Virus record (IMG/VR): IMGVR_UViG_2695420859_000009
Direction: 5' to 3' (one strand)
Length of the DNA: 11,662 nucleotides
Origin: a virus
Lineage: Duplodnaviria; Heunggongvirae; Uroviricota; Caudoviricetes
The notes beneath the pieces are model-generated. The model saw only the letters and a list, made by a program, of their open reading frames with translations. It was not told the origin of the DNA and did no database searches. How positions within the stretch are numbered: position 1 is the stretch's first letter; each line of letters opens with the position of its first letter. Below are positions 1,032 to 10,320 of this stretch, in pieces. The translations under genes and the position numbers were made by a program.

Positions 1032-1451
1032 TTATGATGCGTTTTGTGCTTTCTTTTTACGGATTTCTTCGTAGATCATATTGTAATACTGTTTTTTCTC
1101 TTCAAGAGTTTTTAATAAGTTATCCGCTTCACTTTCTGGCAGTTCGTCTAAGAGATCTAAAAAAATACGTTGTCGTGGCGTTAGAACCCTTGTTTCATAA
1201 TTGGAGGCTGTGTTCGTTGATGATGAAACGATACCATCCATCCATCCCCGGGGTAACCCAAAGGACTCTTCTATAATCTCCACCATATCATCAGCGATCC
1301 GTTTTTTTCCTTTTTTCCCCTCTGGGTACAACATTCTTGATACATAAGAAGGCTCGCGACCGATCTTTCTGGCCACGTTAACCGCTTTACCATCGCATTT
1401 CTCATCACGAATTTTGATGAGTTGTTGTCGTCTAAATTCATATTTGTCCAT
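1032..1451 (-). CDS. racR: RacR-like prophage repressor (cI-type immunity repressor)
   Basis: Track ORF 1032..1493 (minus). The product from MDKYEFRRQQLIKIRDEKCDGKAVNVARKIGREPSYVSRMLYPEGKK matches my memory of Rac prophage RacR. ATG at 1451 is preferred; the track start at 1493 is a TTG and would place an operator-like site (1472..1483) inside the coding region. Start is uncertain. Confidence 0.75.
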   Translation of the reverse strand: MDKYEFRRQQLIKIRDEKCDGKAVNVARKIGREPSYVSRMLYPEGKKGKKRIADDMVEIIEESFGLPRGWMDGIVSSSTNTASNYETRVLTPRQRIFLDLLDELPESEADNLLKTLEEKKQYYNMIYEEIRKKKAQNAS

Positions 1452-1471
1452 AGGTAAATAATAGATGCGAT

Positions 1472-1528
1472 TACCGCAAGGTAAACAACCCAAGGGTATT
1501 GACTTTTGTTTACCTGTGGGTATTCTTT
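1472..1528. promoter_or_regulatory. Divergent promoter/operator region between racR and ydaS: three operator-like sites and a rightward -35/-10
   Basis: Sites TACCGCAAGGTA (1472..1483), AACCCAAGGGTA (1487..1498) and TACCTGTGGGTA (1511..1522) share TACC-N4-GGTA with the palindromes at 950..989. A candidate rightward promoter, TTGACT (1499..1504) with TATTCT (1521..1526) 16 bp downstream, overlaps the third site, just upstream of the ydaS SD AAGGAG. Confidence 0.4.
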
Positions 1529-1551: not shown

Positions 1552-1833
1552 ATGGAAGAATTAAGAATATTTCTCAATTCTCTTTCGTCAGATGAACAGC
1601 GTATGTTTGCATGTGAGTGTGGTACTAGCATCGGTTATCTAAGAAAGGCATTGAGTAAAGGTCAAATGTTAGGGGCATCGTTATGTGTCCTTATTGAGCG
1701 AGCCAGTAATGGTGAAGTTACACGTCAGCAACTAAGGCCTTTTGATTGGATGAATATTTGGCCCGAGCTGGAAGATACCAAAACGTTAACACAACCACTT
1801 ACTAGGAGCTTGATTCATGAAAATCAAGCATGA
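1552..1833 (+). CDS. ydaS: YdaS-like small HTH protein (Cro-like, first gene of the rightward operon)
   Basis: Track ORF with AAGGAG SD upstream of the ATG. It sits divergent from the repressor and upstream of a ydaT-like gene; the sequence matches my memory of Rac YdaS. Confidence 0.75.
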   Translation: MEELRIFLNSLSSDEQRMFACECGTSIGYLRKALSKGQMLGASLCVLIERASNGEVTRQQLRPFDWMNIWPELEDTKTLTQPLTRSLIHENQA

Positions 1834-2242
1834 ACACATCCGCATGGCGATGAATGCCTGGGCGCGTCCTGATGGCGAAAAAGTTCCAGCAGCTGGAATA
1901 ACCCAGGCTTATTTTGAGTTGGGTATGACGTTCCCAGAACTGTATGACGACAGCCATCCGGAAGCCCTGGCTCGCAATACCCAGAAAATTTTCCGCTGGG
2001 TAGAGAAAGACACCCCTGATGCAGTTGAAAAAATTCAGGCGTTGTTACCAGCGATCGAAAAGGCAATGCCACCTTTGCTGGTGGCCAGAATGCGCAGCCA
2101 CAGTTCAGCTTATTTTCGGGAGTTGGTGGAGACGCGGGAGCGACTGGTGAGAGACGCTGATGATTTTGTCGCAGTGGCAATCGCCGGTTTCAATCAGATG
2201 AACCGTGGTGGCCCGGCAGGAAATGCTGTGGCAGTACATTGA
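1817..2242 (+). CDS. ydaT: YdaT-like protein (toxic when derepressed in Rac)
   Basis: Track ORF overlapping the ydaS end by 17 nt, with AGGAG SD. Order and size match the Rac racR-ydaS-ydaT module. Confidence 0.75.
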   Translation: MKIKHEHIRMAMNAWARPDGEKVPAAGITQAYFELGMTFPELYDDSHPEALARNTQKIFRWVEKDTPDAVEKIQALLPAIEKAMPPLLVARMRSHSSAYFRELVETRERLVRDADDFVAVAIAGFNQMNRGGPAGNAVAVH

Positions 2243-3421: not shown

Positions 3422-3697
3422 GTGGCAAAAGTTTTTACTCCCGAACTGCGGGAAGAAGTGAAGGCGCGCATTGTGGAACTGGTACGCAGAGATGGGCGAA
3501 AAACGCGTAAACAACTGGAAAATGAAACCGGGGCGACGAGACACCTGATAGAAGTTCTGGTGAAAGAGCTGGTAGTTAGTGGCGCAGTATATGGTTCAGG
3601 ACATGGAATATTTCCTTCGGAGCAGGCTCGTAAGGACTGGGGAAAAGCCCGCAAAAAAAATGTCGAGAGCGGCAGTGAAAAAGAAGAGCGACCCTGA
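3422..3697 (+). CDS. Small basic protein (91 aa, possible winged-helix DNA-binding), possibly frameshifted into the next ORF
   Basis: Track ORF; GTG start at 3422 with a strong AGGAGG SD 4 nt upstream. The frame ends shortly after an A8 homopolymer (3653..3660), and the +1 frame stays open for another 56 codons. Confidence 0.4.
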   Translation: MAKVFTPELREEVKARIVELVRRDGRKTRKQLENETGATRHLIEVLVKELVVSGAVYGSGHGIFPSEQARKDWGKARKKNVESGSEKEERP

Positions 3698-3830
3698 CCT
3701 GATTTATTCATTGCTAGATGGCGAAATACGCCGTTACAACAGACGACAGAATATAATTTGTCGCGAGTGTCGTCAGAGCGAAGTTATGCAGCGCATACTG
3801 GAATTTTATCAGGGAAATGTTCGGTATTAA
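3579..3830 (+). CDS. Overlapping-frame ORF; its 3' two-thirds (from about 3660) may be the C-terminal continuation of the 3422 gene
   Basis: Track ORF 3579..3830 overlaps 3422..3697 by 119 nt in the +1 frame. The tail LIYSLLDGEIRRYNRRQNIICRECRQSEVMQRILEFYQGNVRY looks protein-like. There is no good RBS for an independent start. Confidence 0.3.
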   Translation: MAQYMVQDMEYFLRSRLVRTGEKPAKKMSRAAVKKKSDPDLIYSLLDGEIRRYNRRQNIICRECRQSEVMQRILEFYQGNVRY

Positions 3831-4073: not shown

Positions 4074-6872
4074 ATGTGGGGAAGTGAAAACAAACAAAAT
4101 CTGGACGTACTGGATCCTGTGCAGTTGGTGCGTATCGAAGCGGTACACCGGGGGTTCCTTTACCAGCATCTTTACGCTGTAGGCTGCTTACTTTTGGCGC
4201 AGAGGGCAGCTATGGACTCAGTAACTGTCGAGCTTGATGAGGATATTGAGCTGAAATCCAAACAGGAACGTCTCTACATTCAGGTTAAAACCCGTTCAAA
4301 ACCTATTATGCCCAACGATGTGTCGGGGGCTCTGGAGCGATTTGTAAAGCTCAGAAATGAGCATACTTCGGCAAACCGCGAAGGGGTGGCTTCTTTTGTG
4401 ATTATTGTAAACCAGGCGCCTGGACCGCTGCTTCAGAAGATGATTGACGATAAAAAGCTTCCTTCTGATGTTCTTATTGTCTGGCCCCAGTCGACAGCTG
4501 GACGTCACCCGGCACTTCCGCCCGCATGGAGTACTCTGGCTGATGCGGCCACATGGTGTATCGCAGAAGCAGAAAAGCTGAAATTTTCACTATTGTCCCC
4601 AGAATCCTTGATTTGGAAGTTAGCAGGATTGGTTCAGCTTGCCGCCACCGGAGGCGATACCAATGGACAACATACGTTTTTCACGGAAGAACTTACTGAA
4701 CTATTTGAACAGTTGATCGTTCAGCTACAGGACTTTCCTGCACCACCAGCACTGTACCGCCCACAGAACGAAGAACCTTCTCTCACATCTGGTGAGCGGA
4801 TCCGTATCCTTTGTGGACTCTCAGGTGCAGGCAAGACAGCTTGGGCCGCACAGGCCGCATTACACTCCACTGCACTTTGTGCTTATTACGACACCGGTGA
4901 TCTTCCCGGTCCAGCTCTGGCCAGTACGCTGGTGCGCGAGATGGCTGCTAGATTTACAGCCCGTGACCAAGACGGTTTGCGCAGGATTTTGCTCCCCGGT
5001 GCCAGTGGTTTTGAGGCTCTTAGGAGTTTTGATACCTACCTGAAAGAGCAGGGTACCACCTTGGTGCTGGTTCTGGATAACGCCCATCGTGTACCTGCGG
5101 AAAATCTACTGGATGTTCTGAATGCAACTACACATATTCGTTTTGTGCTGTTGTGCCAGCCTCACGAAAACGTTCGCGAACTGGAGGTCATGACGGGGCT
5201 ACAGCGCGAGGGCCTGCAGGGATGGAATCTCGATACGGTAGCTGTCGTTGTAAACGATATCGGAGGATTTGCCACCGCTATGGGATACGAGCAGCTACGG
5301 GCTTACACTGGTGGTCTTCCCCTGTATGTAGAGAGCGCCGCAAAAATCGCCGTTTCTGATTATGAGCGTAATGTCGATGCTCTGTGTGCTGAACTCCAGC
5401 AACAAACCCATACTGCGGAAACCGCCCAAGAAATTATTCTGTCACGTGTATTTCAGGGATTTGAATCACTACTTCAGAGCGCGCTGGCATTGTTCAGTCT
5501 CTCTGACGTAGGGCTGAGTCGCGAAGAGATTTCTACGCTCCTAATCAATTCGCTGAACATTTCACCAAGCAGTGCTGCTTCTTTAATTAGGAAAATGCGC
5601 GCTACTGGCACTATTGAAATTTATGGAAACCAGACCCTGAAGGTACATGATGCTGTCAGGGGGCTAGGACTGCAACATCTGGAACTGATGGATCAGGGTA
5701 TATCGAACAAAGCGCTACTAGCGCTGAAAGACCTTTTAGTTGAAAGTCTTCATAATACCCGCAATACAAAACGGTTATCGTTGTTGACTCAACTTTATAT
5801 TAAGCTCAATGATGTCACGACGTTGATCGAACTCTCAGGCCAAGAAATGTTTTATGAGATGGGCGTGACGGTCGACATTCTTGCAAGCTTGGAGCGTGCT
5901 GCAACATCGGACTTATTGGGACCTGTTCATAAATTCTGGGCATTGGATGGCCTTGTTTTCGTTGAGCTTAAAGACGGAATATCCGACCACATTGCTCAGA
6001 GGTTAAACATCATGGGAGCTTTACTTGCGGAGCACAAGTTCGGCTATCAAGAAGAGATGGCCTATGCAATGAAACGAATGTTATTTTCGGCAGAAAGCAA
6101 TGATGCACGAGAAGTTCAAAAGCTGGCACAGGAAGTCCGCCCCCAACTCCCAGATGAAGAACATAAACGCATCTTTGACTACAACCATGCCATTGCACTC
6201 TGGAGATTAAAAAAACTCAAGGATGCTGAAACATTAAGCTGTAATGTTATACAAGGGTACTATTCTTTATTTGGTATCACACCTGCTGATGTCATAGGAA
6301 AAAACGCCGACGCATTATGGAAAACTATTAATCATTCCGAAAATATGCAGGAACACTTTAAACATATGGCTGATGCTCTGGAGTTGCTGGCCAGAATTCG
6401 TGATGCGCAGGGAAAACTGTCACCATTACTGCGTATTCATTCGATGAAGTTCTACAATCTGGCCATGGCCCCGGAATCCATGGTCAGGGTGGGCCAAGAT
6501 CTGGCGGATGAGTTTGTTGCCATAAAGGATTACGACGGTGCCAAGGAAGTCATGGAGCAACATGTCCTGCCGGTTGTCAATGAGGCAGGTCTAGTACATC
6601 GACTGATTCAGGTTCGAAGCCAATACGCAGTCATATTAGCACTATCGGGTCAGCATAAAGCAGCTGATGTCGAAATGCAGCGCCTTGCTCCCTATATCGA
6701 AGGCCTCACAGGTGTACAGCGTCAAGAAATCCAAAATCAATCAAATTACATCGTACAGCTTGCCCATAAAGCAGCAAAGACTAAATTAACTGAAGTTTTT
6801 GGTGCGGTCGGCCGGAATGAACAATGCCCCTGTGGCTCGGGAATAAAGTACAAAAAATGTCACGGTGCCTGA
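4074..6872 (+). CDS. Large multidomain protein (932 aa): N-terminal PD-(D/E)xK-like nuclease-type region, STAND/NB-ARC-like P-loop NTPase, helical repeat region, C-terminal SEC-C zinc-binding motif; candidate single-gene antiphage (Avs-like) defence protein
   Basis: Track ORF with AGGAA SD. Walker A GLSGAGKT (residues 248-255, nt 4815..4838); Walker B LVLVLDN (D335 at nt 5076..5078); GLPL motif at residues 413-416 as in NB-ARC/STAND NTPases. N-terminal GFLYQ...VELDEDIELKS...IQVK resembles Cap4/Mrr-type nuclease signatures (from memory). Terminal CPCGSGIKYKKCHG (residues 918-931, nt 6825..6866) matches the SEC-C motif. About 450 residues of the C-terminal half are predominantly helical by eye. 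The gene is flanked by AT-rich intergenic DNA. Confidence 0.85.
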   Translation: MWGSENKQNLDVLDPVQLVRIEAVHRGFLYQHLYAVGCLLLAQRAAMDSVTVELDEDIELKSKQERLYIQVKTRSKPIMPNDVSGALERFVKLRNEHTSANREGVASFVIIVNQAPGPLLQKMIDDKKLPSDVLIVWPQSTAGRHPALPPAWSTLADAATWCIAEAEKLKFSLLSPESLIWKLAGLVQLAATGGDTNGQHTFFTEELTELFEQLIVQLQDFPAPPALYRPQNEEPSLTSGERIRILCGLSGAGKTAWAAQAALHSTALCAYYDTGDLPGPALASTLVREMAARFTARDQDGLRRILLPGASGFEALRSFDTYLKEQGTTLVLVLDNAHRVPAENLLDVLNATTHIRFVLLCQPHENVRELEVMTGLQREGLQGWNLDTVAVVVNDIGGFATAMGYEQLRAYTGGLPLYVESAAKIAVSDYERNVDALCAELQQQTHTAETAQEIILSRVFQGFESLLQSALALFSLSDVGLSREEISTLLINSLNISPSSAASLIRKMRATGTIEIYGNQTLKVHDAVRGLGLQHLELMDQGISNKALLALKDLLVESLHNTRNTKRLSLLTQLYIKLNDVTTLIELSGQEMFYEMGVTVDILASLERAATSDLLGPVHKFWALDGLVFVELKDGISDHIAQRLNIMGALLAEHKFGYQEEMAYAMKRMLFSAESNDAREVQKLAQEVRPQLPDEEHKRIFDYNHAIALWRLKKLKDAETLSCNVIQGYYSLFGITPADVIGKNADALWKTINHSENMQEHFKHMADALELLARIRDAQGKLSPLLRIHSMKFYNLAMAPESMVRVGQDLADEFVAIKDYDGAKEVMEQHVLPVVNEAGLVHRLIQVRSQYAVILALSGQHKAADVEMQRLAPYIEGLTGVQRQEIQNQSNYIVQLAHKAAKTKLTEVFGAVGRNEQCPCGSGIKYKKCHGA

Positions 6873-7149
6873 GTCTTTGTACGACCATGCGGGCCTTATT
6901 GTCTTGCTATTGCTCTTATGGTTCGCCTTTCTGATTGATTTCATATTGGCGAGGTGACGGGAGTTAAGTAGAATGGCTGCGGGTGCTTGAGGCTATCTGT
7001 CTCAGGCATGAACACCAAAGGCAGATAGAGAAAAGCCCCAGTTAACATTACGCGTCCTGCAAGACGCTTAACATTAATCTGAGGCTCAATCTATGAACGG
7101 CAAATCTAGGTTAGCCTCTTACGTGCCGAAAGGCAAGGAGAAGCAGGCT

Positions 7150-7305
7150 ATGAAGCAGCAAAAGGCGATGTTAATCGTCCTGATCGTCATCTGTTTAACC
7201 GTCATAGTGACGGCACTGGTAACGAGGAAAGACCTCTGCGAGGTACGAATCCGAACCGGCCAGACGGAGGTCGCTGTCTTCACAGCTTACGAACCTGAGG
7301 AGTAA
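7150..7305 (+). CDS. hokD: Hok/Gef-family type I toxin (51 aa membrane peptide)
   Basis: MKQQKAMLIVLIVICLTVIVTALVTRKDLCEVRIRTGQTEVAVFTAYEPEE matches the Hok/RelF family as I remember it. SD AGGAG at 7136..7140. The track ORF 7093..7305 adds an in-frame 19-codon 5' extension. Downstream rem-like and ydfU-like genes fit the Qin hokD neighbourhood. Confidence 0.85.
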   Translation: MKQQKAMLIVLIVICLTVIVTALVTRKDLCEVRIRTGQTEVAVFTAYEPEE

Positions 7306-7373
7306 GAGACCAGGCGGGGGAGAAATCCCTCGCCACCTCTGATGTGTCAGGCATCCTCAATGCACCCGCACTT

Positions 7374-7400
7374 AACCCGCTTCGGCGGGTTTTGTTTTTT
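7374..7400 (+). terminator. Rho-independent terminator / 3' stem-loop of the hok mRNA
   Basis: Stem CCCGC (7376..7380), loop TTCG, stem GCGGG (7385..7389), followed by TTTTGTTTTTT (7390..7400). Confidence 0.55.
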
Positions 7401-7472
7401 CCTGGCATTCTGGTTTACAATTCGCACGCCAGCCTGAACAACTGGCACCTGCTGCGCCAGCAGAGACAACCG

Positions 7473-7751
7473 ATGGCGCACGATACCAAATTACACAATT
7501 CTAATGATTCTGCTGTCTTTGCCAGCAGGTGCGGACGGCGTTTTCACGCATTCACATCAGACTGGTTCCAGCATCCTCCATGCACTGAAGAGCAGGCTGA
7601 ATGGATAATTCAGTGTTACCGCAGGCGTGGATACGAGGTTAAGAAAGCTCTTAGTCTCGACTATCGTCACTGGATAATCTCAGTCAGACTCCCTTACTCC
7701 GAACGCCCACCGCGTCCGTCCCGCACATTCCAGCAACGCATCTGGAGGTAA
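7473..7751 (+). CDS. Small hypothetical protein in the rem position of Qin-like prophages (92 aa from ATG 7473)
   Basis: Track ORF 7344..7751, but its first 43 codons span the terminator hairpin, so the internal ATG at 7473 is preferred. Its SD is weak. The rem-like call rests on synteny only. Confidence 0.4.
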   Translation: MAHDTKLHNSNDSAVFASRCGRRFHAFTSDWFQHPPCTEEQAEWIIQCYRRRGYEVKKALSLDYRHWIISVRLPYSERPPRPSRTFQQRIWR

Positions 7752-7752
7752 C

Positions 7753-8808
7753 GTGCGGGTATTACTTCGACCTGTTCTGGTACCGGAACTCGGGCTGGTG
7801 ATCGTTAAGCCGGGCCGTGAATCCATGCCGGTATTCCACAATACCCGGGTACTGGTGGAGCCGGAACCGAAAAGCATGCGTAATCTGCCGTCCGGGGTCG
7901 TTCCTGCCGTTCGCCAGCCGCTGGTGGAAGACAAAACATTGCTGCCGTTTTTCAGTAACGCACGGGTGATTCGTGCTGCTGGTGGTGCTGGTGCATTGTC
8001 TGACTGGCTGTTGCGCCATATTAAATCCTGCCAGTGGCCACACGGCGATTATCATCACAGCGAAACCGTCATTCACCGTTATGGTACCGGCGCAATGGTG
8101 TTGTGCTGGCACTGCGACAACCAGTTGCGTGACCAGACCTCCGAATCACTCGGGCAACTTGCTCATCAAAACCTGTCAGCATGGATGATTGACGTCATCG
8201 GTCACGCAATAAGCGGTACGCAGGAGCGTGAATTATCTCTGGCTGAATTATCCTGGTGGGCGGTCCGCAATCAGGTGGCGGACGCGCTACCGGAAGCGGT
8301 ATTACGTCGTTCGCTGGGGTTGCGTGCGGAAAAAATCCGCTCAATGTACCGTGAAAGCGACATCGTGCCGGGAGAGCAGACCGCCACCAGCATACTGAAG
8401 CAGCGCACAAAAAATCTTGCGCCGATGCCTCACGCCCACCAGCAAAACCCGCCACAGGAAAAGACGGTGGTAAGCATTGCCGTTGATCCGGAGTCACCGG
8501 CTCAGTATCTCCAGCGCCAGAAACCACAACGGGAAGAGATGCCCGTATACACGCGCTGGGTAAAAACGCAGAAATGCATGACGTGTGACAATCAGGCAGA
8601 TGATCCGCATCACATCATTGGTCATGGACTAGGAGGGATGGGAACGAAGGCTGACGATTTGTTTGTTATTCCGCTGTGCCGTAAATGTCATAACGAACTG
8701 CACGCCGGGGTAAAAGATTTTGAAGAAAAACACGGCAGCCAGCTGTTGTTGCTGATTCGTTTTTTAATGCACGCGAGAAATTCGGGCGTCCTGAAGTGGA
8801 AAGCATAA
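7753..8808 (+). CDS. ydfU: YdfU-like DUF968 protein with a C-terminal HNH-type nuclease motif
   Basis: Track ORF with GTG start and GGAGG SD. C-terminal CMTCDNQADDPHHIIGHGLGGMGTKADDLFVIPLCRKCHNELH (nt 8575..8703) has the C-x2-C ... HH ... C-x2-C-H-x3-H arrangement of HNH nucleases. Size (351 aa) and position match Qin YdfU as I remember it. Confidence 0.7.
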   Translation: MRVLLRPVLVPELGLVIVKPGRESMPVFHNTRVLVEPEPKSMRNLPSGVVPAVRQPLVEDKTLLPFFSNARVIRAAGGAGALSDWLLRHIKSCQWPHGDYHHSETVIHRYGTGAMVLCWHCDNQLRDQTSESLGQLAHQNLSAWMIDVIGHAISGTQERELSLAELSWWAVRNQVADALPEAVLRRSLGLRAEKIRSMYRESDIVPGEQTATSILKQRTKNLAPMPHAHQQNPPQEKTVVSIAVDPESPAQYLQRQKPQREEMPVYTRWVKTQKCMTCDNQADDPHHIIGHGLGGMGTKADDLFVIPLCRKCHNELHAGVKDFEEKHGSQLLLLIRFLMHARNSGVLKWKA

Positions 8809-9174
8809 ATGACTGAACGCATAGAATTTGTTTTGCCTTACCCGCCAACGGTGAATACTTACTGGCGACGTCGTGGCAGCACATATTTTGTATCAAAAGT
8901 CGGTGAGCGTTATCGCCGTGATGTGGCACTAATTGTTCGCCAGCAGCGGTTGAAATTAAACCTGTCCGGAAGGCTGGCAATAAAAATTATTGCAGAGCCA
9001 CCGGATAAGCGCCGTCGTGACCTGGACAATATCCTGAAGGCACCACTGGATGCACTGACGCATGCGGGGCTGCTCATAGACGACGAGCAGTTTGATGAAA
9101 TCAATATTGTGCGCGGTCAGCTTGTTCCTGGTGGGCGGTTGGGGATAAAAATCACAGAACTGGGGTGCGCATGA
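8809..9174 (+). CDS. rusA: RusA-family Holliday junction resolvase
   Basis: 121-aa product with LPYPPTVNTYWRRRG, PDKRRRDLDNILKAPLDALT and GGRLGIKITELG, matching RusA motifs (catalytic acidic cluster around RRRDLDN). The start ATG abuts the ydfU stop (TAAATG). Confidence 0.85.
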   Translation: MTERIEFVLPYPPTVNTYWRRRGSTYFVSKVGERYRRDVALIVRQQRLKLNLSGRLAIKIIAEPPDKRRRDLDNILKAPLDALTHAGLLIDDEQFDEINIVRGQLVPGGRLGIKITELGCA

Positions 9175-9860
9175 ATAACCAGTATTTACAGTTTGTGCGT
9201 GAGCAGCTCATTATCGCCACCGCTGATTTGAGTGGGGCAACAAAAGGTCAGCTTGAAGCCTGGCAGGAGAATGCCATGTTCGATACAGGGCGTTACAGGC
9301 GTAAAAAAATCCGGTACCGCGATGAAGTGACTGGAAAAATGATAACGCGGGATAATCCCCCAATCCCGGGAAAGCAATCGCTGGCGAAGGGGACGTCAAT
9401 TCCTCTGGTCAGTCCGATTGAGTTTTCGACATCATCGTGGCGGCGGGCTGTTCTGTCTCTTGAAGAACATCATAAAGCCTGGTTGTTGTGGTGTTACAGC
9501 GGGAGTATTTGTTGGGAATATCAGATCGCGATAACACAGTGGGCGTGGAATGAATTTAATACTCAATCCGGTACCAGAAAAATTGCAGGGAAAACGCAGG
9601 AACGCCTGAAAAAATTAATCTGGCTGGCGGCGCAGGCAGTAAAAGCAGAACTTTTTGGTGGGGAAGGTTATGAATACAAGGAGCTGGCATTACTGGTGGG
9701 AGTGACAACTAAAAACTGGTCCAAAACATTTACTCGTCACTGGGTTGCAATGAAACACATTTTTCACCGACTGGATAGTGAGGCTTTATTGTTTGTAATG
9801 AGAACGCGTTCAAAACAAAAGGCGGCATTTTCAAAGCAAAGTGTTGCAAAAGTAGATTGA
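9171..9860 (+). CDS. Late-gene antiterminator Q-like protein (function inferred mainly from position)
   Basis: Track ORF 9165..9860. ATG 9171 overlaps the rusA stop (ATGA). It is the last gene before a promoter, a short-transcript terminator and a tRNA cluster, which is the layout downstream of Q in lambdoid and Stx phages. The sequence itself is not confidently recognised. Confidence 0.5.
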   Translation: MNNQYLQFVREQLIIATADLSGATKGQLEAWQENAMFDTGRYRRKKIRYRDEVTGKMITRDNPPIPGKQSLAKGTSIPLVSPIEFSTSSWRRAVLSLEEHHKAWLLWCYSGSICWEYQIAITQWAWNEFNTQSGTRKIAGKTQERLKKLIWLAAQAVKAELFGGEGYEYKELALLVGVTTKNWSKTFTRHWVAMKHIFHRLDSEALLFVMRTRSKQKAAFSKQSVAKVD

Positions 9861-10070: not shown

Positions 10071-10146
10071 GGCCCTTTAGCTCAGTGGTGAGAGCGAGCG
10101 ACTCATAATCGCCAGGCCGCTGGTTCAAATCCAGCAAGGGCCACCA
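10071..10146 (+). tRNA. tRNA with CAU anticodon, closest to Ile2 (lysidine-type ileX/ileZ-like) rather than Met
   Basis: Cloverleaf folded by hand: acceptor GGCCCUU/AAGGGCC, anticodon loop CUCAUAA (CAU at 10104..10106), T-arm GCUGG-UUCAAAU-CCAGC, discriminator A, encoded CCA. Highly similar to E. coli ileX from memory. Confidence 0.8.
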
Positions 10147-10153
10147 TCACATA

Positions 10154-10230
10154 CCGCCATTAGCTCATCGGGATAGAACGCCAGCCTTCGAAGCTGGTTT
10201 CGCGGGGTTCGAGTCTCCGATGGCGGTCCA
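10154..10230 (+). tRNA. tRNA-Arg (anticodon UCG)
   Basis: Acceptor CCGCCAU/AUGGCGG, anticodon stem CCAGC/GCUGG with loop CUUCGAA, T-loop UUCGAGU, discriminator U, encoded CCA. Confidence 0.75.
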
Positions 10231-10243
10231 TTATCGGTATTCT

Positions 10244-10320
10244 GCGTTTTTAGCTCAGCCGGACAGAGCAATTGCCTTCTAAGCAATCGGTCACTGGTTC
10301 GAACCCAGTACAACGCACCA
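10244..10320 (+). tRNA. tRNA-Arg (anticodon UCU, argU/argO-like)
   Basis: Acceptor GCGUUUU/ACAACGC (one mismatch), anticodon loop CUUCUAA (UCU at 10278..10280), T-arm CUGG-UUCGAAC-CCAG, encoded CCA. Resembles argU from memory. Confidence 0.75.

Follow-up and report, generated by a model that had tools for sequence, protein, structure and literature searches.

DUF968 proteins such as YdfU and DUF1364 proteins such as YbcO (PDB 3g27) make up group 7 of the His-Me fingers, whose gene neighbors are RusA, Q and antirepressor genes and for which a role in recombination has been hypothesized (Jablonska et al. 2017; PMC5714182). The family also includes a protein whose annotation reads phage transcriptional regulator (PMC5714182). 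DUF968 has also been described as having a zinc-finger HNH motif at its C-terminus and as occurring in some cases in fusion with Erf, Rad52 or RusA (Curtis et al. 2014; PMC4118853), and a nuclease-like function has been predicted for DUF1364 (Kaur and Subramanian 2016; PMC4999995). Here we analyze a ydfU-like gene and its C-terminal HNH-type motif in IMG/VR virus record IMGVR_UViG_2695420859_000009, a stretch of 11,662 nucleotides from a member of the Caudoviricetes that is referred to as a whole as the window.

Two related phage proteins have been characterized biochemically. The Ref protein of phage P1 is a nickase that cuts D-loops made by RecA (PMC3973344), and it is reported to enhance ciprofloxacin lethality (PMC4713147). 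Gp16 of Staphylococcus aureus phage ΦNM1 belongs to 'HNH subclass 6', with the motif C145-x2-C148, H157, C181-x2-H184-H185-x3-H189, and residues at matching spacing have been mutated experimentally. It binds double-stranded DNA, nicks and linearizes plasmid and is inactive as the C181A variant; it also binds RecA, which stimulates it and through which it inhibits growth and replication of the host (PMC12817073).

The HNH class of the YdfU C-terminus and its RusA/Q neighborhood were already published in 2017 (PMC5714182), and the present locus is ordinary for a lambdoid prophage, not a new kind of system. YdfU is, however, one of the still uncharacterized 'y' genes of Escherichia coli K-12. The analysis sharpens the hypothesis of its function: Ref and Gp16, the characterized proteins most closely related to it, are nickases linked to RecA, and selection preserves the catalytic residues over the zinc finger. 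In addition, the N-terminal half is seemingly a degenerate copy of the HNH fold, as far as predicted structure can suggest.

The C-terminal domain of YdfU

The C-terminal part of YdfU (residues ~262-345) is probably a zinc-stabilized His-Me finger (HNH, ββα-metal) nuclease domain, carried by a delayed-early nickase that has RusA as a frequent co-resident. The plus-strand stretch 8575-8703, which a preliminary description of this DNA had singled out as an HNH-type metal-binding nuclease motif, translates to CMTCDNQADDPHHIIGHGLGGMGTKADDLFVIPLCRKCHNELH (residues 275-317, in frame within the open reading frame 7753-8808), letter for letter as given there. Its elements are C275-x2-C278, H286-H287 and C309-x2-C312-H313-x3-H317.

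The source is a YdfU-type (DUF968) gene, as the preliminary description had also proposed, and it belongs to an E. coli lambdoid prophage. Pfam DUF968 (PF06147) matches residues 160-343 over profile positions 1-169 of 171 (E 2.8e-63, 213.4 bits against a gathering threshold of 27.8), and PHROG_96 ('HNH endonuclease') aligns residues 1-348 with its entire length (1-334 of 334, E 4e-164). The product is 78.7% identical to E. coli K-12 YdfU over 348 residues. E. coli proteins on record are 98% identical and likewise 351 amino acids long, DNA that is 94% identical is found in prophages and phages of E. coli whose annotation reads ydfU-rusA-Q, and close homologues occur in many lambdoid and Shiga toxin (Stx)-converting prophages. 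Reading from the sequence, the gene starts with a GTG located 5 nucleotides 3' of GGAGG and stops with a TAA at 8806-8808.

Profile comparisons point to a nuclease family for the motif. HNHc_6 (PF16784, 'putative HNHc nuclease') matches the whole protein with 30.0 bits (gathering score 26.6) and residues 260-351 alone with 32.8 bits (E 6.6e-8). The same C-terminal residues give weaker in-register matches to HNH_5 (E 0.015) and HNH (E 0.083, profile positions 1-46 of 47), and the 'HNH endonuclease' PHROG families 131, 7370 and 144 match weakly. In hhalign comparisons, a profile of the domain built from 26 diverse relatives aligned with P1 Ref (probability 77%, E 2e-5), pairing PC-x2-C, HH and PLC-x2-HH, and with YbcO (probability 71%, E 3.7e-5). 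Thus profile and sequence evidence agrees with the originally proposed HNH-type motif, and residues 260-351 were not placed in a non-nuclease zinc-finger family. C2H2 zinc-finger matches in the PDB (E 0.6-1.1) were not significant, were weaker than the match to YbcO, and were judged to be composition artefacts. Stand-alone DUF968 proteins of ~110 amino acids in uncultured phages also match the C-terminal module.

The predicted structure is consistent with this assignment. An AlphaFold model built on 33 sequences has a mean predicted local distance difference test score (pLDDT) of 68 and is confident for residues 55-190 and 270-345. It places β-strands at 284-287 and 305-308 and an α-helix at 310-318, followed by two more helices. 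This ββα topology, a two-strand hairpin and then a helix, is the predicted counterpart of the His-Me finger fold. H287 ends the first strand and aligns with the HH of Ref, where the general-base histidine is expected; H313 and H317 lie on the helix as candidate metal ligands, and D302 provides the mid-motif aspartate.

Conservation separates the catalytic residues from the zinc ligands. An exhaustive search of cluster representatives at 50% identity yielded 1738 relatives, and alignment A1 combines the query with 31 full-length representatives that are 25-49% identical to it (n = 32). C275, D302 and P307 are invariant in all 32 sequences, position 287 is histidine in 29, and positions 313 and 317 are each histidine in 28. 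The complete catalytic set H287/D302/H313/H317 is found in 28 of the 32. The quartet at 275/278/309/312, on the other hand, reads CCCC in 14 sequences and CCCH in 10 and is lost in the remaining 8, all of which retain the catalytic set. Selection therefore acts on the catalytic residues, which argues against a purely structural zinc finger. Judged at the sequence level by the HNHc_6 score above its gathering threshold and by conservation among distant relatives, the motif is not a chance cluster of cysteines and histidines.

If the domain works as its relatives do, then C275, C278, C309 and C312 would bind a structural zinc and so link the β-hairpin to the helix. H287 would be the general base that activates a water molecule, and H313 and H317 together with D302 (the 'N' position) would hold a catalytic divalent metal, so equipped that the domain could nick DNA. 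The ydfU gene is the last or next-to-last one before Q in a delayed-early (nin-type) operon. Given this position and its translational coupling, YdfU should be made at prophage induction together with phage recombination and replication functions. Because the characterized relatives Ref and Gp16 both work with RecA, YdfU is probably a structure- or partner-directed nickase acting on recombination or replication intermediates; targeting through RecA itself, as for Ref and Gp16, is a more speculative suggestion. RusA would resolve junctions as a frequent co-resident and not as an obligate partner. The fold, the conserved residues, the operon position and the translational coupling are the observed part of this proposal. 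A RecA- or structure-directed nickase would explain why this gene is conserved in the lambdoid nin region, and it might offer another programmable nickase of the Ref type.

Several observations weigh against assigning YdfU as a nickase. The HNHc_6 match spans profile positions 119-184 of 204 and so covers the nuclease part only. Pfam RecA_dep_nuc (PF16786), the family of Ref, does not match YdfU, and the NinB/Orf-like domain published for Gram-positive DUF968/HNHc_6 proteins was not detected in YdfU. PDB searches from sequence only were weak, with YbcO at E 0.43 for the single sequence and 0.069 for a profile. Model confidence is low for residues 1-53 and 221-261 and for the 290-300 loop beside the active site. 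Four of the 32 representatives (P0203, P0211, P0224 and P0230) are without the catalytic H/H/H and retain the zinc cysteines and the N-terminal domain; since the catalytic residues are lost in these proteins, some family members are probably not nucleases, and these four may be inactive derivatives with another role. Finally, our search for biochemical or genetic literature on YdfU or on enterobacterial-type DUF968 proteins found none.

The N-terminal domain of YdfU

Residues 1-157 match no Pfam family, and the DUF968 profile begins at residue 160. Within this region there is a putative second zinc site formed by C93, H101, C118 and C121, with W119, D122 and N123 nearby. Across alignment A1, C93 and C118 are invariant, position 101 is cysteine or histidine in 31 of 32 sequences and position 121 is histidine or cysteine in all 32, such that the four positions are jointly kept in 31. 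W119 (31/32) and D122 (30/32) are nearly as constant. Which of positions 101 and 121 is the cysteine and which the histidine differs between lineages (mostly H...C or C...H), a pattern expected when a zinc site with four ligands is maintained.

A separate model of residues 50-195 (pLDDT 86, predicted template modeling score 0.82) contains a β-hairpin (105-110/113-118) and a helix that begins at C118. The domain is probably a second HNH-like zinc module that is non-catalytic and lacks the catalytic set, to the extent that the modeled fold can be relied upon. Its predicted resemblance to the C-terminal domain came from a fold search, with modest scores. BLASTP of the N-terminal against the C-terminal region returned only a 12-residue match (E 0.098) as a sign of internal duplication, and hhalign of the two profiles gave a probability of 2%, which is not significant and weighs against a second HNH-like module. 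The register of that alignment is nevertheless the expected one, pairing C93 with C275, H101-H102 with H286-H287, C118 with C309, C121 with C312, D122 with H313 and R126 with H317. The equivalent of the general base, H102, is histidine in just 14 of the 32 sequences, and D122 and R126 occupy the places of H313 and H317. We found no description of such a module in the literature examined; it is a prediction at this stage, and it probably serves DNA or partner binding.

A bolder proposal, which is unlikely to hold as a whole, is that YdfU is a 'two-headed' His-Me protein. Its dead N-terminal module would recognize a partner, RecA for example, or a DNA structure, and would thereby bring the C-terminal HNH domain to D-loops or stalled forks for nicking at induction, after which RusA would resolve the branched intermediates.

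Proteins in which the N-terminal half of YdfU is joined to tail-fibre, tip-attachment J or portal domains (P0127, P0147, P0177, P0179, P0225 and others) were set aside. Rather than true fusions, they most likely reflect deletions left in decaying prophages or chimeras of assembly.

Genomic neighborhood and alternative roles

The gene lies in a compact series of phage genes (Table 1). Its GTG directly abuts the TAA stop of an upstream rem-like gene, and the ATG of rusA at 8809 follows its own stop codon immediately, where the preliminary description had placed RusA; both junctions, read from the sequence, indicate translational coupling. The rusA product matches PF05866 with 57.5 bits (E 2.7e-15, threshold 22.8) and PHROG_34 with E 4e-56. 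It is 42% identical to K-12 RusA and, in the pairwise alignment, has the same residues at D70, D72, K76 and D91 of that protein. D70, D72 and D91 are reportedly the catalytic aspartates of E. coli RusA, as attributed to Bolt et al. in 1999. Upstream, PHROG_1212 matches residues 71-135 of a longer listed open reading frame (7344-7751), and a related phage annotates a 279-nucleotide coding sequence ('toxin to Rem') at this position. A strong terminator-like hairpin (7374-7391, plus strand; AACCCGC-TTCG-GCGGGTT, then a T run) lies between hok and the rem-like gene. Because the listed reading frame crosses this hairpin, the rem-like coding sequence probably starts at the ATG at 7473.

Table 1. Coordinates of ydfU, its predicted domains and other genes in the window
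Feature	Position	Strand	Basis
ydfU-like gene, 351 aa (DUF968)	7753..8808	+	Open reading frame list, PF06147, PHROG_96, K-12 YdfU identity
N-terminal domain, ~residues 55-155, helices and ββα unit (β 105-110, β 113-118, α 119-125)	7915..8217	+	Predicted
Cys/His core of N-terminal domain, C93 to N123	8029..8121	+	Conservation (n = 32)
C-terminal His-Me finger (ββα-metal) domain, ~residues 262-345 (predicted)	8536..8787	+	
HNH motif, residues 275-317	8575..8703	+	Translation, conservation, spacing shared with ΦNM1 Gp16
rusA, Holliday-junction resolvase, 121 aa	8809..9174	+	PF05866, PHROG_34, K-12 RusA identity
Q-type late-gene antiterminator, overlaps end of rusA	9165..9860	+	PF06323 E 9.8e-93, PHROG_304 E 1.4e-108
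rem-like gene, 92 aa	7473..7751	+	PHROG_1212, related-phage annotation, K-12 Qin order
hok	7093-7305		PF01848
932-aa open reading frame between replication-region genes and hok	4074-6872	+	Cap4-type, AAA_22/AAA_16, SEC-C

It is possible, if unlikely, that YdfU is a nuclease aimed at the host, where it would stop replication or counter a defense in the way of Gp16, and not a phage recombination enzyme. The inhibition of host growth and replication by Gp16 through RecA is a precedent for such a role, as is the raised ciprofloxacin lethality reported for Ref, and the neighbors of ydfU include hok and a defense-like gene of 932 codons. However, a PADLOC search gives no defense-system match for YdfU, and strong toxicity is made less likely by the survival of an intact ydfU in Qin and other cryptic prophages. 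The gene is also delayed-early and located beside Q, whereas gp16 is immediate-early. This explanation overlaps the recombination nickase that we favor, and sequence cannot separate the two.

The comparison of related loci bears on how closely YdfU is tied to RusA. We examined 81 loci, consisting of 80 related loci (one genome per species) and one phage locus, whose YdfU proteins are 42-98% identical. All are of Enterobacterales type and at least 42% identical because a closer alignment (A2) seeded the locus search. RusA was sought with an iterated profile on the same strand within 4 kb, and it was present in 62 of the 81, a count made over YdfU loci alone. It is directly downstream of ydfU, as here, in 4 loci, directly upstream in 18, upstream with one antirepressor-type gene (Rha/ANT, KilA-N or ORF6N) between in 35, and further upstream in 5; 19 loci have none within this distance. 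In the other loci ydfU is followed by a Q antiterminator, of PF06530 in 38, PF03589 in 14 and PF06323 in 8, and by an unassigned 201-residue protein in 11. Thus ydfU is found directly upstream of Q antiterminators from at least three Pfam families.

These arrangements make it quite unlikely that YdfU and RusA are an obligate two-gene junction-processing system, whether as a complex or as a strictly coupled pathway. The abutting ydfU stop and rusA start codons in the window would fit such a system, as would the co-occurrence within 4 kb, the reported DUF968-RusA fusions (PMC4118853) and the DLP12 prophage of K-12 (ybcN-ninE-ybcO-rusA-ylcG-quuD), in which another group 7 His-Me protein is paired with RusA in parallel. 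Against it, the order is reversed in most loci, often with the antirepressor-type gene intervening, 19 loci lack a nearby RusA, and the K-12 Qin prophage has the order hokD-rem-ydfU-ydfT(Q) without rusA. All genes of this region are also co-located whatever their function, and the 62 of 81 is a raw count among YdfU loci, not a frequency set against lambdoid nin regions that lack YdfU. Since the order, the spacing and the presence of RusA all vary, ydfU and rusA are better described as separate cassettes of one delayed-early region. The two-gene recombination module of the preliminary description is therefore loosely supported: the two genes are usually neighbors, but rusA directly follows ydfU in just 4 of the 81 loci, is absent within 4 kb in 19, and is missing from Qin.

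Five of these loci (L007, L010, L027, L053 and L065) carry an enterobacterial-type ydfU (45-79% identity) in assemblies titled Veillonella, Geobacteraceae, Caulobacter, Vagococcus and Actinomycetes. Four of them are metagenome-assembled genomes, and all five are probably mis-binned or contaminant contigs.

A non-catalytic zinc finger, with YdfU as a DNA-binding or regulatory factor such as a transcription or antitermination accessory beside Q, is very unlikely. This possibility gains from the position of ydfU directly upstream of Q, counted as invariant, from the family member annotated as a transcriptional regulator (PMC5714182), from the apparent lack of catalytic residues in the predicted N-terminal HNH-like domain, and from the four representatives that lost the C-terminal catalytic set and kept the cysteines. 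A structural finger should nonetheless preserve its zinc ligands first. The opposite is seen, with the H/D/H/H set surviving in every representative that lacks them; the nearest characterized relatives are, moreover, active nucleases, and the C2H2 matches are not significant.

Many phage HNH proteins are packaging factors associated with terminase (HK97 gp74 type) or selfish homing endonucleases, and PHROG families 131, 7370 and 144 match weakly, but either role is hardly credible for YdfU. Its gene sits in the early region before Q, a long way from the terminase genes, and in the related phage vB_EcoS-689R5 the gene of the terminase small subunit is immediately preceded by a separate endonuclease gene. 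Moreover, ydfU holds a fixed syntenic position in the 81 loci from many enterobacterial genera, with large conserved extra domains and translational coupling, features that do not resemble a homing element.

Other features of the window lie outside the ydfU-rusA-Q segment. The 932-residue protein has an N-terminal Cap4-type double-stranded DNA endonuclease domain, AAA_22/AAA_16 ATPase domains and a C-terminal SEC-C zinc motif, with a weak PADLOC match to LmuA (E 5e-7); its gene looks like a defense-type moron (accessory gene) of the prophage. Three tRNA genes, Met(CAT), Arg(TCG) and Arg(TCT), are located at 10071-10320 (plus strand) just 3' of Q, an arrangement shared with Stx-converting phages and their lambdoid relatives, and a related phage carries Met/Thr/Gly tRNA genes at the matching place. 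A YdaS-like (PF15943, below threshold) and YdaT-like (PF06254) gene pair at 1552-2242 (plus strand) stands opposite a divergent 153-codon open reading frame at 1032-1493 (minus strand), which is a Rac/Qin-type immunity-region layout. Near the start of the window is a tandem direct repeat (228-527 and 563-862) of 300 nucleotides, 97% identical at a spacing of 335 nucleotides, and each copy contains a 78-codon minus-strand reading frame of the DUF1391 (YdfA-like) family. A DUF977 gene (3422-3830, plus strand) is split between overlapping reading frames in different frames, 3422-3697 covering profile positions 1-83 and 3579-3830 covering positions 70-133, which suggests a frameshift by mutation or sequencing error.

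Comparison with known systems

The Qin YdfU of K-12 is the nearest named counterpart. It has the same domain order, the same Pfam family and the same hok-rem-ydfU-Q context, and it differs in having no rusA between ydfU and Q and in having histidine at the fourth zinc position (CRKHH, compared with CRKCH here). YbcO (DLP12 and phage 82; DUF1364, 'putative nuclease') belongs to the same His-Me group and is 46.7% identical over a 30-residue core, and ybcO is also found directly upstream of rusA and before Q. It is, however, a stand-alone domain of 96 amino acids that is without the first C-x2-C, has aspartate for the final histidine, and contains nothing of the first 260 residues of YdfU.

Lambda NinG (Rap), a branch-specific His-Me endonuclease, is from the same superfamily and fills the same slot late in the nin region before Q. 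By sequence no relationship between the two proteins can be detected: phmmer finds no match between YdfU and NinG (PF05766), and hhalign gives 11.6% over 13 columns. Homologues of lambda NinG or NinB are present in none of the 81 loci, and the absence of NinG from every one of them fits alternative occupancy of the slot before Q. Lambda-type phages have Rap in place of RusA, whereas YdfU usually co-occurs with RusA.

Ref and Gp16 are the nearest characterized relatives. Ref (PDB 3plw) is a recombination-enhancing phage nickase whose PC-x2-C, HH and PLC-x2-HH align with YdfU. It differs in its N-terminus, where 76 basic, disordered residues stand in place of the folded domains of YdfU, and in its setting, since ref adjoins cre on P1. 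Gp16 and φETA Orf20 represent the HNHc_6 family, whose threshold YdfU exceeds. In both Gp16 and YdfU a C-x2-C is followed by 8 residues and a histidine, then by 21 (YdfU) or 23 (Gp16) residues and C-x2-[C/H]-H-x3-H, and the NinB/Orf-like domain that accompanies the HNH part of Gp16 sets it apart. The RecA link is characterized for Ref and Gp16 and is putative for YdfU. If the less likely 'two-headed' arrangement proves true, YdfU would add an enterobacterial class to the RecA-linked phage nickases, the third after those of P1 Ref and ΦNM1 Gp16.

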